Origin: Promethearchaeota archaeon
GTDB lineage: Archaea > Asgardarchaeota > Lokiarchaeia > Sigyniarchaeales > SOKP01
Length of the DNA stretch: 50,121 bases
Direction of reading: 5' to 3'
Assembly (NCBI GenBank): GCA_016839765.1
Contig: JAEOTP010000048.1
Location: 1 to 50,121, forward strand
Each line of letters begins with the position of its first letter. The first letter of the stretch is position 1. Under the pieces are notes generated by a model. That model did not search any database. It saw nothing but the letters and a program-made list of their open reading frames with translations, and had not been told where the DNA came from. Of the stretch, positions 14,408 to 44,819 are shown in pieces. A program made the position numbers and the translations under genes.

Positions 14408-15082
14408 TTATTTTCGCATTGTCCGAGGGTAATTTGCAAACAGACTTTCAAATAGTCTATTGAATTTAACGCCTTGGTCTGCTGATATTACTTTAGGTTT
14501 CCCGACTTGTAAGGCACCCCAATATATTTTTGCAAGTTTTTCAACTAATTCAGCAAATTTTACAGCATGTTCTACTGATTTTCCACACACAATTACTCCA
14601 TGGTTAGCTAAAAGTGCTGCATTTTTAATTCCTAATGCTTTAAGAGCAGCTTCTCCTACTTCTTCTGTATGTGCTTCTCCAAATGAAGATATGTCGATTG
14701 AGCCTCCTAAAAATGCGATTTGTTCCTCCATTATAATAGGTATGCTCATTTGGTTAACTGAAAGCATAGTTGCATGAGGAGAATGAGTATGAATTACTGC
14801 ATGAACTTTTGAACGGGATTTATAAATGAGAGAGTGCATTTTTGCTTCTGTAGAAGGTAATTTCCCTTTACTTAAAGGAGTTCCATCAAAATTCATATGT
14901 ACAATTTGTTCTTCTGTTAAAGTTTCATAATTATTAAAAGAAGGAGTGATAAACAATTCCTCCTTTTTTCCGTATCTTACACTAACATTCCCTTCCCCAG
15001 TATCTACTAAACCCTTTTTAAATATTGTTTTTGCTCCCCAAACGACTTCAGTTCGAAATAAATCTTCTTTTTCTTTAGACAT
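14408..15082 (-). CDS. Class II aldolase/adducin family protein (FucA/MtnB-like)
   Basis: GNVSVR, ITPS, PSTEAKMH, VIHTHS and LLANHG. Confidence 0.9.
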   Translation of the reverse strand: MSKEKEDLFRTEVVWGAKTIFKKGLVDTGEGNVSVRYGKKEELFITPSFNNYETLTEEQIVHMNFDGTPLSKGKLPSTEAKMHSLIYKSRSKVHAVIHTHSPHATMLSVNQMSIPIIMEEQIAFLGGSIDISSFGEAHTEEVGEAALKALGIKNAALLANHGVIVCGKSVEHAVKFAELVEKLAKIYWGALQVGKPKVISADQGVKFNRLFESLFANYPRTMRK

Positions 15083-39564: not shown

Positions 39565-40743
39565 TTACTTTTGTTTAGATAAGTATCTTATTTTAACTAA
39601 TAAATCACGTAATTCCATTTTGTCGTTTTCCGCGGTGATGTATTTCTTTTTTATTCCCTCAGAAAGAGGTACATCTTTAATTTGATTTCCTTGTAATGAG
39701 ACCATATTTCCAAATTTGCCTTCTAATACCATTTTCATAGCTGCTAATCCAAATCTTAGACCTAATATTCTATCAAATGAATTTGGAGTCCCAGCACGCA
39801 TAGTATGACCAAGAACTACACTTCTACATTCGAATTCAACTCCATTTTTTTTAAATTCTTTTTTTAAATTCTCTCGTAAATTTAATTCATTAACAATTAT
39901 TTGAGACATACCTAATTTAGCTAATAATGGATTACCAAATGTATCTTTGGGTAATTTTTCAATAGTTTCTTTAGAAATTGTTTTAAAATCTCTCTCTAGT
40001 GACTTTAGGTTAGGGTATGCTCCTTCTGATATTACAATAATATGATATTTATAGCCAGCATTGGCTCTTTTTTTAAGTACATCAATAATATCTTTCTCAA
40101 AATCAAATGGAGTCTCTGGGATTAAAATAATATCAGCGCCAGCCGAGATTCCACTATACATGGTAAGAAAGCCGGCATCCCTGCCCATTATTTCAACTAC
40201 AAATACCCTTTGATGAGAATGTGCAGTTGTTGTTAGATTATCTAGTGTATTAGAAGCTAATTGTACAGCACTCCAAAATCCAAATGTATAATGTGTTCCA
40301 AGAAGGTCATTGTCTATAGTTTTTGGAACGCCTACTACCTTTGCTTTAGCAAATATGTGCAAAGAATCCGCAACCCCTAATGTATCGTCTTCAGTTTAAA
40401 ATAGAAACTATTTTAAAACTCCACCGATAGCTATTAGGGCATCAATACCTAATTCATTAAACTTTCCTGCTAATTCTTTTGCTGTTTCTTCTTTTGAAGT
40501 GATTCCTTTAAAAGGATTTGTTCTACTTGTATAGAGAATTGTTCCTCCTACCGTATGTAAGTCATCATGTTCGGCGATATTAAGAGGGATTGTATCATTA
40601 TCTAAAAATCCTTTCCAGCCCTTAAGAATTCCTACACATTCTACTCCAGCATCATAAGCTTTTAACATAATTCCGTAAATAACAGAATTCAGGCCAGGGC
40701 AATCTCCTCCACCAGTTAAAATACCTATTTTTTTAATAACCAT
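39565..40743 (-). CDS. pfp: PfkA-family phosphofructokinase, probably PPi-dependent; two exons (40743-40419 and 40388-39565), 382 aa after removing a 30-nt insert
   Basis: Exon 1 has GGDCPGLN, GGTILYTSR and LIAIGG. Exon 2 has DDTLGVA, PKTIDND, EIMGR and LGHTMRAG. Both halves share one frame, and GGDD plus PKTIDND is the PPi-type signature. Confidence 0.85.
40389..40418 (-). other. Candidate 30-nt BHB-type mRNA intron in the phosphofructokinase gene
   Basis: Minus strand reads GGAG|TTTTAAAATAGTTTCTATTTTAAACTGAAG|ACGAT. It has in-frame TAG and TAA, a 10-bp internal stem, two 3-nt bulges and exon-exon pairing. Removal restores GGDDT. Confidence 0.75.
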
Positions 40744-40823: not shown

Positions 40824-41393
40824 TTAATCTAATTCCTTACTTTCAAGTTTTTCAAAACTATAGTTTGATTTATCAATTGGAATGATATAACTCCCTCCAC
40901 CATTATCAGTTAATATTAATGTGAATTTCAATTTTCCGTTAAGTGCTTTTTTAATATCCTCTAAAATTTGATTTACTTCCTCAAATTCAGGATCATCTTT
41001 CTCTAGATTATTTTTATATATTGAAACAGCACTTTCGAATCGATATAAAATTCCTTCAACATTAGTATAATAGAACTCAGCATTAGGTCCTGGTTGTACA
41101 GATAATTCTAACTCGGGTATCTCTAATTTTCCAGTGGGAGATCGATAAATTTTTGATTTAAGATCTTCTTCGTTTAAAATTTTTAAAGTTATAATTCCAG
41201 GATCAAAATTAGTAGTTAAAGGAATAATATCATTTTTAGAAAAATTACATTCATCGCAATCAAATTTGATAATAAGCATTTTATCCTTATCAGGTAAGTC
41301 GTAAACTGTTTTTTGTATATTAACATTTCCTTTAGAACATGCGGGACATTTAAACGAGAATAGTTCTTCTGAATCCTTGGCTTTTTGAGACAT
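40824..41393 (-). CDS. ZPR1-like zinc-finger protein
   Basis: CPAC..CDEC, IPELELSVQPG and TNVEG. Confidence 0.9.
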   Translation of the reverse strand: MSQKAKDSEELFSFKCPACSKGNVNIQKTVYDLPDKDKMLIIKFDCDECNFSKNDIIPLTTNFDPGIITLKILNEEDLKSKIYRSPTGKLEIPELELSVQPGPNAEFYYTNVEGILYRFESAVSIYKNNLEKDDPEFEEVNQILEDIKKALNGKLKFTLILTDNGGGSYIIPIDKSNYSFEKLESKELD

Positions 41394-41692: not shown

Positions 41693-42268
41693 TTGACTGA
41701 TGATAATATAATAGAAATTACGTTTCACGGGCGAGGAGGCCAAACGGCTATCACTGCCAGTCAATTATTGGCAGAATTAGCTTATGAAAAAGGCTTTAAA
41801 GATGCTATTGCTATTCCAATTATTGGAGCTGAAAGAAGAGGTGCTCCAATACAAGCTTTTACTAAATTATCTAAAGATAGACTTATAAAAACTTACGATA
41901 GCGTTGTTAATCCCCACTTCATACTTATTTTTGACACCTCACTATTAGATATACCAAGAGTTCAGGATACTATTAAAGATGGTGTTACACTTGTAGTAAA
42001 TAGTAAAGATCCATTTGATACAAGCAAATTTGGAAAAATTATTAAACTATATATTATAGATGCTACGGGAATTTGCATTAAGAGAGAATTTATGCACGCA
42101 AGTGGTCCGATATTAAATATTCCCATGTTAGGTGCATTTGGAAAAATAACTGGCTATTATGATCTTGAAATTATGGAAAAAGTTATAAAAAAACAATTTG
42201 GTGCAAAGAGATTAGAAAAAAATATGATGGTTGCGAAAGATGCGTATGAATCTGTAAAGGAGGGATAA
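41693..42268 (+). CDS. porG: Pyruvate/2-oxoacid:ferredoxin oxidoreductase gamma subunit
   Basis: [14 protein letters not shown] and NIPMLGA. Confidence 0.92.
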
Positions 42269-42270
42269 AT

Positions 42271-42624
42271 TTGGCAGAAATTAAATCAGAAAAATGGAAA
42301 AAAATTAATAAATCTAAAAAGGAACGACCAGAAATTCAAGAATATAAAGATTGGGAAGAATTATCTCCCATTCCAATATCATTACCAATTAAAGGGAGTA
42401 TGGGTGAAACTGGTGATTGGAGAACCTTTAGGCCAGTTATTAAGGAAGATTGTAATAAATGTGGAATTTGTTGGATGTATTGTCCTGAAGGAGTAATAAT
42501 AAGGAAAGAAGACGGTTCTTTTGAAATAGATTTAAAATATTGTAAAGGGTGCGGGATTTGTGCTAAAGAATGCCCCACGAATAATATAGAAATGTTAAGA
42601 GAAAGTGATATAAAAGATGGTTGA
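42271..42624 (+). CDS. porD: Pyruvate/2-oxoacid:ferredoxin oxidoreductase delta subunit (2x[4Fe-4S])
   Basis: [21 protein letters not shown] and [13 protein letters not shown]. Confidence 0.93.
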
Positions 42625-43873
42625 AACTCCAAAAGATTTTATTCAGAAGGAAGAAAATGTCATTATTAAAGGAAATGTTGCAGCTGCTTATGCTGCAAAA
42701 TCTGCAAGGGTTCAGGTTATTAGTGCGTATCCAATTACTCCTCAAACTACTGTAGTTGAAAAGTTATCTGAATTTGCTGATAATGGTGAGATGCCCGGAA
42801 CTCAATATATTAAAGTTGAATCTGAACACAGTGTTCTCGCATCCATCATAGGTGCAAGTAAAGCTGGAACTCGAACTTTTACAGCCACTTCTGGGCAAGG
42901 TTTGTTTTATATGCATGAAATGCTGCATTGGGCTGCAGGTGCTCGACTTCCGATTGTTATGGCAATAGCATCACGAGGTCCTGCTCCACCATGGAATATA
43001 TGGGCTGATTTTACTGATGTACTAAGTCAGCGCGACACAGGATGGATGAGCGCCTTTTGTTCTTCACATCAAGAAATCTATGATGAAATTCTAATGTCAT
43101 ACAAGGTATGTGAAGATCATAACATTTTGCTTCCGAAATTTGTAGCTTATGGTGGTTTTATTTTATCCCATACATCAAAACCCGTAATTATTGAAGACCA
43201 AGATAAAGTTGATAACTTTTTACCTCCATTGCTAGATGAAGAGGGTTGGCCTCATATTTGGATGGATCCAAAAAGACCAATGATGTTTGGAAACCTTATT
43301 ATGCCTTCGGGATTTTATCAAGAATTTCGATTAAAAATACACGATGCTCATATCAGAGCAAAAGAGAAAATAATAAAAGCTGCACAAGAATTTAAACAGT
43401 TATTTGGAAGGGGTTATGGTAATGGATTAATTCAGGAATATAAAATGGATGATGCTGAAGTTGGAATGATAATTTATGGAGATTTAGCACTTCAAATGGA
43501 AGATGCTGTTGATTATGTAAGAGAAGAAGGTTATAAAGTCGGTATGGTAAAGTTAAGACACTTCAGACCTTTTCCAACAGAAGATATAATTGGAGTTGCT
43601 AAAAAGGTTAAATTGCTTGGAGTGGTTGATAGAGCTACTGCTTTTGGATCACAAACAGGTGGTCCAGTTAGCTGTGAAGTAAAAGCAGCTTTACATGGAA
43701 CTAAAGATACAGCCAATATTTTACCCATTATTAATGGCTTAGGAGGTAGAGAAGTCACTTTAGAACAACAAAAAAATCAATTAAGAAAATTAGTTAAATT
43801 TAACGAAACTGGAGAGGTTCCGAAAGATACTATCCATGGAACTCTCTGGGATTGTTTATTGGAGGTTAAATAA
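42617..43873 (+). CDS. porA: Pyruvate/2-oxoacid:ferredoxin oxidoreductase alpha subunit
   Basis: [19 protein letters not shown] and FRPFP. Confidence 0.93.
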
Positions 43874-43877
43874 TAAT

Positions 43878-44819
43878 ATGGTTAAATTAAAAGAGGCTTT
43901 AGAAAGTTGTCAAGAAGAATATTTTCTTCCTGGAAATTCATGCTGTGCTGGTTGTGGTTTGGAAATCGCTCTTAGATGGGCAATGAAAGCTTTAGGTCCT
44001 AAAACTGCTCTAGTTACTCCTGCATCTTGTCTTAATGTTGTTGTTGGACTATGGCCTAAAACAGCCCCTAATTTTCCATTCACTAATATGGCTTTTGCTG
44101 CTGGAGCTGCTGCAGCTACGGGTATGTCTGCGGCTTTTAAAGCCAAAGCTTATAGATTCCCCGGAAGAGGATGGGATGAAATTACAGCAATTACTTTTGC
44201 GGGAGATGGTGGAACTGCTGATATTGGAATTCAAGGTTTAAGCGGAGCAGCAGAAAGAAATTCTGATCAAATTTATGTATGTTATGATAATGAAGCATAC
44301 ATGAATACAGGAATTCAAAGATCTTCGAGTACACCGCATGGTGCGTGGACAAGCACAACCACAAAAGGGAAAGACCGTTTTAAGAAGAATCTTCCCGCAA
44401 TTATGGCGGCTCATGATATACCTTATGTAGCGACTTGTTCTATCAGTGAACCCCTTGATCTATATGAAAAATTCAAGAAGGCTAAGTCTATTAAAGGCTG
44501 TAAATATATTCATATCCTAGCTCCCTGCGCACCTGGATGGGGATTTGGATCGGATGAAACAATAGAGATCGCAAGATTAGCTGTTAAAACAGGTTCATGG
44601 ATTCTATATGAGGTTGAAAGCGGTATTATGACTTTATCAAAAGCTAGTAGGACATTATTAGATCCTTCTAAGAGAATACCACTTATAGAATATCTTTCCA
44701 GACAAAAAAGATTCGCGAGCATTTCAGAAAAAGATTTAATCGAACTCCAAGAGTATTTAGATCATACTTGGAAACGCATTGAAGTTGATTTAAGTTGTCA
44801 AGATAATTATCCAAAATAG
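43878..44819 (+). CDS. porB: Pyruvate/2-oxoacid:ferredoxin oxidoreductase beta subunit
   Basis: CAGCG, TPP motif GDGGTADIG and YDNEAYMNTGIQRS. The ATG at 43878 is preceded by GGAGG. Confidence 0.93.
   Translation: MVKLKEALESCQEEYFLPGNSCCAGCGLEIALRWAMKALGPKTALVTPASCLNVVVGLWPKTAPNFPFTNMAFAAGAAAATGMSAAFKAKAYRFPGRGWDEITAITFAGDGGTADIGIQGLSGAAERNSDQIYVCYDNEAYMNTGIQRSSSTPHGAWTSTTTKGKDRFKKNLPAIMAAHDIPYVATCSISEPLDLYEKFKKAKSIKGCKYIHILAPCAPGWGFGSDETIEIARLAVKTGSWILYEVESGIMTLSKASRTLLDPSKRIPLIEYLSRQKRFASISEKDLIELQEYLDHTWKRIEVDLSCQDNYPK

Follow-up and report, generated by a model that had tools for sequence, protein, structure and literature searches.

A candidate BHB intron in the active-site codon of a Lokiarchaeia phosphofructokinase gene

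How can an archaeon obtain a working phosphofructokinase from a gene whose reading frame is closed by stop codons in the middle of its active site? The window analysed in this work is the whole 50,121-nucleotide stretch at positions 1 to 50,121 of contig JAEOTP010000048.1 (assembly GCA_016839765.1), and on its minus strand, at 40743-39565, lies a PfkA-family gene (pfk) that reads as two open reading frames of 111 and 265 amino acids, as had been expected of gene callers when the locus was first described. The original prediction, made from the letters of the sequence, was that the break is an intron cut from the mRNA by the archaeal splicing endonuclease EndA at a BHB motif and sealed by the ligase RtcB. 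Here we examine the gene, its predicted RNA fold and its relatives in the light of that proposal and of its alternatives.

The interrupted gene and the distribution of the insert

A 30-nt insert at 40418-40389 (minus strand) splits the first Asp codon of the GGDDT motif and carries two in-frame stops, TAG at 40410-40408 and TAA at 40398-40396. Its excision leaves a single 1149-nt frame of 382 amino acids in which GGDDT is intact; the Pfam PF00365 match is continuous over positions 1-276, across the break, and alignment with a solved ortholog (PDB 9CIR/44XA) gives a clean 10-residue gap exactly at IGG/DDT (a slash marks an insertion point here and below). The flanks are intact and carry no further lesion, as originally predicted, and the coordinates and motifs on which that prediction was built (stems, central segment, bulges and 10-bp intron stem) are all present in the sequence. 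This is the sole PF00365 match in the 96%-complete genome. Among solved structures the host protein comes closest to 9CIR (E 1.5e-137), the PPi-dependent phosphofructokinase of Ca. Prometheoarchaeum syntrophicum; the insert splits an active-site codon, because in the paper on 9CIR the first Asp of GGDD binds Mg and the second is catalytic.

The organism, an uncultured archaeon first described as Asgard-like, belongs to Promethearchaeota/Lokiarchaeia, and its relatives carry Promethearchaeota names. Six GenBank entries (L085, L086, L126, L128, L134 and L145) hold pfk genes 80-93% identical to the studied Lokiarchaeia gene under titles of Hodarchaeota, Hermodarchaeota, Odinarchaeota, Thorarchaeota, Nanopelagicaceae or Woesearchaeota, and their labels or bins look wrong. 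Within the window, a pyruvate:ferredoxin oxidoreductase-type cluster at 41693-44819 stands divergent from the ZPR1-like gene and pfk, and is a conserved upstream neighbour in relatives. The coordinates of all features are collected in Table 1.

Table 1. Features of the pfk locus and of the predicted splicing motif, in window coordinates
Feature	Position	Strand	Remark
pfk exon 1	40419..40743	-	325 nt, ATG through base 1 of the split Asp codon
pfk intron, phase 1, 30 nt	40389..40418	-	sole register valid in 35/35 variants
pfk exon 2	39565..40388	-	824 nt, to stop; retains PKTIDND, MGR, LGHTMR
Exon-exon helix h, 5' arm	40425..40429	-	99.4% of cells paired; synonymous sites frozen
Exon-exon helix h, 3' arm	40383..40387	-	pairing and synonymous-site data
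Central helix H, exon strand	40421..40424	-	outermost position never paired (G.A or G.G throughout)
Central helix H, intron strand	40391..40394	-	G-C, G-U, U-G, then G.A
5' bulge	40418..40420	-	predicted cut after second base; third base U/A in relatives
3' bulge	40388..40390	-	predicted cut after second base; second base any of four letters
Intron hairpin h'	40395..40417	-	10 bp + 3-nt loop; 97.1% of cells paired
Empty site of second pfk intron (GGG/DCPG)	40703..40704	-	filled in many relatives, nearest included
ZPR1-like gene, upstream of pfk	40824..41393	-	conserved neighbour
Predicted joined exon junction of pfk			ATCGGTGGAG/ACGATACATT

A contig from the independent study P4 (run X7) covers 39862-40504 ungapped, with 4 differences; two further studies supply contigs of relatives that likewise cross the insert without gaps. 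Assembly error, which had been named as a way in which the proposal could fail, is excluded because this independent DNA contig spans the insert and 20 other species also have it; the insert is real DNA. Recurrence among orthologs, a check put forward with the proposal, was found in 21 of the 135 genomes of the family, across three genera, always 30 nt long and at the same site; other families of the class, represented by 26 genomes, gave no 30-nt match. Once metagenome contigs were added there were 35 distinct insert junctions, again all of 30 nt. One genome (G121) also holds an orphan 230-bp pfk fragment with the intron (L298:1323-1554, on its contig C5), apart from its intact pfk, and the intron in this fragment agrees with the variant seen in a different species (L035).

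Other classes of inserted element were also considered. Rfam searches of the insert returned chance matches alone, none near any gathering score, and a self-splicing group I or group II intron was rejected on this ground and on that of length, 30 nt against a core of hundreds of bases. A MITE or other repeated palindromic DNA element was rejected on single copy and the lack of a target duplication: no second copy or donor was found in the studied genome at up to 5 mismatches, and the 2-nt AG repeat is missing from 20 of the 35 variants.

Position of the cut, the proposed RNA motif and the splicing enzymes

Taken by itself, the studied genome allows the cut at any of three positions. Across the 35 variants, a cut after GGAG, which leaves the first base of the Asp codon in exon 1, is the sole register that rebuilds GGDDT in every one, and in 7 it is the sole possible cut. 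In 7 variants the border codons read Val...His, Tyr or Asn, and neither is Asp. The most variable letters of the junction are the free, unpaired positions of the bulges, that is the first and last bases of the intron. At BHB motifs EndA cuts after the second base of each 3-nt bulge, and this rule, with its 4-nt and 3-nt spacing, predicts the very cut that the protein defines, removing exactly 40418-40389 and restoring GGDDT as first calculated. We regard the coincidence of the protein-defined and BHB-predicted cuts as the strongest single piece of evidence.

The paired structure of the motif is conserved. Overall, 96.8% of cells are paired (values for the 5-bp exon helix and the 9-10-bp intron stem in Table 1), compared with 30-43% in slid-partner controls. 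The two exon-exon stems first proposed fare differently: the inner one, 40425-29 with 40383-87, is upheld, while the outer one, 40433-39 with 40375-81, is not conserved, being absent from the RNAalifold consensus and built on synonymous sites that vary freely. The compensatory changes that an RNA stem should accumulate are seen in part, in that a single pair has both partners altered, in eight related sequences, but most stem substitutions are one-sided (A-U to G-U); true covariation is therefore thin, and the double-changed pair possibly reflects one or two events. Third-position diversity at codons -4 to +1 is 0.00-0.20 among 18 intron-bearing genes versus 0.24-0.72 among 64 intronless genes, and is back at background by codons -5 and +2, so that the six frozen codons are those building the paired motif; loci found by the JGI pattern scan were excluded from these statistics, as that scan had required conserved exon letters. 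The freezing could in part reflect a short co-transferred DNA tract, relatives being non-independent samples, but its sharp edges would fit RNA structure better than such a tract.

The centre of the motif is weak, as the original prediction had cautioned. The studied genome has 3 of the 4 central pairs and so falls short of the four-pair canonical BHB. The outer central position is unpaired in 35/35 variants (G.A in 31, G.G in 4), and in 10 of the 35 the second pair is U.U, leaving two pairs only. The geometry of the relaxed class (two 3-nt bulges, a 4-nt segment and at least 3 pairs) is found in the studied genome and in 25 of the 35 variants, and cuts after the second bulge bases restore the conserved product. 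The inner two central pairs are kept in 35/35, yet their pair probability is about 0 in energy models; ViennaRNA and RNAalifold leave the central pairs unformed and form both outer helices, h and h', with predicted probability near 1. Geometry this good for 30 nt (at least 3 central pairs, an exon helix of at least 5 and an intron stem of at least 9) occurs at only 5 positions in the 6.6 million of the studied genome, which speaks against chance. Judged from these features, the motif is a predicted non-canonical BHB of the relaxed, cbf5 type.

Two EndA paralogues are encoded in the studied genome, at C72:10118-10723 and C82:30061-30678 (minus strand), and an intact RtcB is present on C25. The alpha subunit of EndA finds its best match in chain 3P1Z_B, from Aeropyrum pernix; it retains the Tyr142/His150/Lys181 triad, and its K59-P60-R61 aligns with K44-P45-R46 of that chain (the crenarchaeal loop). 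The K-P-R loop has been tied to the cleavage of relaxed motifs and is reported throughout Asgard archaea (PMC5829648; PMC12397907). Judged by sequence, the EndA of this genome would be of the broad-specificity (alpha-beta)2 type that carries the CSL/L1 lysine, and a ligase accompanies it; the relaxed-specificity endonuclease on which the original prediction depended is thereby accounted for at the sequence level.

The pfk insert is also not alone. In the studied genome, in which these further inserts were assessed, the BHB rule restores the interrupted motif, with 4/4 central pairs, for a 33-nt insert in EF-1alpha (C57:103567-103599), a 31-nt insert in mevalonate kinase (C96:37300-37330) and a 31-nt insert in eS31 (C51, about 14793-14823). 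Under strict filters an ab initio scan of the genome returned the pfk intron as its top match and missed the others; EF-1alpha and mevalonate kinase came back under a looser filter, amid noise and with no length peak. ARAGORN detects just 31 tRNAs in this genome, several of them miscalled (Stop, Pyl, extra SeC), and tRNA genes on C15, C40, C50, C56, C67 and C96 suggest AT-rich D-arm inserts of about 30 nt.

Taken together, it is highly probable on this comparative evidence that the insert is a relaxed BHB intron removed from pfk mRNA by EndA and RtcB, as in cbf5. The strong outer helices h and h' would pre-position the splice junction, the two-subunit EndA would grip the weak centre of two or three pairs through its K-P-R loop and cut both bulges, and RtcB would ligate the exons. 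Translation of spliced mRNA would give a 382-aa enzyme whose GGDD and KTID motifs form the PPi-type signature, and that of unspliced mRNA a 111-aa fragment without an active site.

The alternative that keeps closest to these data is that some other nuclease and ligase, reading the hairpin or an internal loop, cut the RNA at the same points. A centre of just two or three pairs that is not predicted to form, beside two outer helices that are the conserved parts of the motif, speaks for such an activity. Both cuts, however, fall exactly at EndA positions with the 4-nt and 3-nt spacing, and the inner central pairs are kept in every variant; the further interrupted genes of the genome obey the same rule with complete central helices, the genome's own EndA bears the relaxed-substrate loop, and most cbf5 introns are unconventional too, yet are EndA substrates (PMC2738675). 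We consider another nuclease unlikely.

Readings without RNA splicing, and the history of the insert

Translation could in principle deal with the insert if ribosomes skipped the hairpin, by a hop of the T4 gene 60 or byp-like kind, or read through its stops. A GGA codon precedes the stop within the hairpin, and 30 nt further along comes GAA, a similar codon; this layout resembles that of T4 gene 60. A hop nevertheless joins whole codons between matched take-off and landing sites, and neither feature is found here: the supposed landing codon varies by species (GAA, AAA, TAA or TGA), and in the 7 variants without a border Asp no hop yields GGDDT. Readthrough would have to suppress two unlike stops and would give an active site longer by 10 residues. 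The join is obligatorily within a codon, and with these 7 variants it follows that nucleic acid must be cut and joined; bypassing or readthrough is accordingly very improbable.

A second reading is that the gene is dead, or that its halves serve as two separate polypeptides, as the two called frames and the lack of the insert in most relatives might suggest. Relaxed selection (dN/dS near 1) had been named as the sign of a young pseudogene. Between intron-bearers the median dN/dS is 0.092 in the 5' half and 0.061 in the 3' half, and between intronless genes 0.063 and 0.060; the five catalytic motifs are unchanged in 29/29 intron-bearers, and the GGDD and KTID motifs typical of PPi-dependent PfkA-family enzymes are present after splicing in all 29. 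The pseudogene is rejected because both halves are under purifying selection and the motifs are invariant, and the absence of other lesions and of another PF00365 gene in a nearly complete genome adds to this. As two chains the gene fares no better, in that the first start of the second frame, TTG at 40362, lies past DDT and both Asp residues would be missing. We find either version scarcely tenable.

Excision of the insert from the DNA of part of the population, by phase variation or loss of a hairpin that could also form in single-stranded DNA, would suit its patchy presence among close relatives, but is barely credible given that contigs of four DNA runs hold no joint skipping the 30 nt (contigs showing presence, not absence), that the exact joined sequence occurs in 0 of 72 intronless junctions (protein search), that G-U-type stem substitutions suit RNA more than DNA, and that a second copy or target duplication of the mobile-element type is missing.

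The patchiness itself is considerable. On a gene tree of 93 sequences, presence of the GGDDT intron changes 16 times (shuffled mean 24.9, minimum 18), which is repeated gain or loss, the tree giving no direction. In five intronless genes (L012, L022, L029, L044 and L099) the frozen 5' exon context is largely preserved and the junction reads GAT, which hints at precise intron loss.

A second pfk intron, of 30-32 nt at GGG/DCPG, likewise splits an Asp codon after GGAG. It is found in L032, L033, L002 and 30 other pfk loci in at least three sequence types, and is missing from the studied genome while its nearest relatives carry one. The two introns co-occur above expectation (13 loci with both, 9 and 8 with a single one and 56 with neither), in a sample whose kin are non-independent. 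In the studied pfk, 15 differences from its nearest relative, L032, fall in the first 60 aligned coding bases (window 40734-40675), and about 10 in the next 1080 (99% identical); the intergenic region of L032 is about 77 nt longer than that of the studied genome. This 5' tract of L032 looks to have moved horizontally, because it is 93-96% identical to the tract of distant carriers.

Just upstream of pfk, a free-standing LAGLIDADG gene is present at L173:3-1274, L237:3620-4576 and about nine other loci, and is confined to loci with the GGG/DCPG intron; it was found at 0 of the 10 loci having the GGDDT intron alone, and no endonuclease gene lies between the ZPR1-like gene and pfk in the studied genome. 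A homing endonuclease tied to the GGDDT intron was rejected, as the LAGLIDADG gene tracks the other intron; for the GGDDT intron, co-conversion or ordinary recombination may be the means of spread. The gene downstream at three pfk loci has no Pfam match. LAGLIDADG homologs (42% identity) are present elsewhere in the studied genome, one at C57:102474-103037 (L289), directly upstream of the intron-bearing EF-1alpha and with no Pfam match by itself, and one at C73:13665-14381 (L288), decayed and among tRNA genes.

The pfk intron is most likely a tolerated passenger, gained and lost repeatedly, with a regulatory role being possible. A broader view can be put forward tentatively, at somewhat less than even confidence: that Lokiarchaeia routinely apply tRNA-type splicing to coding mRNAs, with introns of about 30 nt spreading between species within active-site codons, some of them helped by adjacent free-standing LAGLIDADG genes; that the pfk intron, its centre of two or three pairs supported by strong outer helices, represents the lower limit of EndA recognition; and that splicing efficiency could gate the sole phosphofructokinase. 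If pfk mRNA is indeed spliced as proposed above, splicing is needed by a gene of core metabolism in those prokaryotes that stand closest to eukaryotes, as well as by at least three further genes of the genome, and annotation pipelines would be miscalling such genes as split or dead, distorting Asgard metabolic reconstructions. A 47-nt RNA and a two-subunit enzyme offer a small, testable substrate for the limits of EndA relaxation, and the family as a whole a natural presence/absence series for the gain and loss of protein-spliced introns.

Comparison with known systems

A literature search, of incomplete coverage, turned up no report of BHB introns within coding sequences of Asgard archaea. 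The host protein shares GGDD and KTID with the PPi-dependent enzyme of 9CIR, a protein without an insert at GGDDT, and its own use of PPi is predicted from these motifs. In XBP1/HAC1 mRNA, protein-catalysed loss of a short intron also restores a frame, with RtcB-type ligation in animals, but the nuclease is IRE1, the motif consists of two stem-loops and the process is stress-regulated. The likeness, which implies no homology, is to the IRE1/RtcB splicing reviewed in PMC13149111.

Among archaeal mRNAs, the HVO_1309 5' UTR intron of Haloferax volcanii is a BHB intron, like that of pfk, and is processed by EndA in vitro (PMC7714728, 2020). It lies in an untranslated leader and is 46 nt long, and its removal is not required for a reading frame. 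Non-canonical tRNA introns of Asgard archaea, for which a relaxed class has been defined by three of four central pairs (bioRxiv 10.64898/2026.10.13.758758), share with the pfk intron the motif, the enzyme and repeated gains, and the studied genome has tRNA genes with extra introns. That work covers tRNA genes only, with no mention of mRNA or cbf5, and the pfk intron has no look-alike in the studied genome within the mismatch limit given above.

The closest parallel is the BHB intron of cbf5 pre-mRNA in Desulfurococcales and Sulfolobales (Watanabe 2002; Yokobori 2009, PMC2738675), in the literature covered the one archaeal coding gene for which splicing is confirmed, other putative introns having been predicted (PMC2738675). 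The cbf5 and pfk systems differ in phylum, the pfk host being an Asgard archaeon, and in function, RNA modification versus central metabolism; splicing has been shown for cbf5, and for pfk we infer it. The cbf5 intron reflects one gain and two losses, whereas that of pfk has undergone many changes within one family and shares its genome with others of the kind. What they share is nonetheless extensive: a short intron in coding sequence (16-44 nt in cbf5), interrupting an active-site Asp codon after its first base, with a mostly unconventional BHB, in a host with a two-subunit EndA, and gained and lost in the course of evolution.
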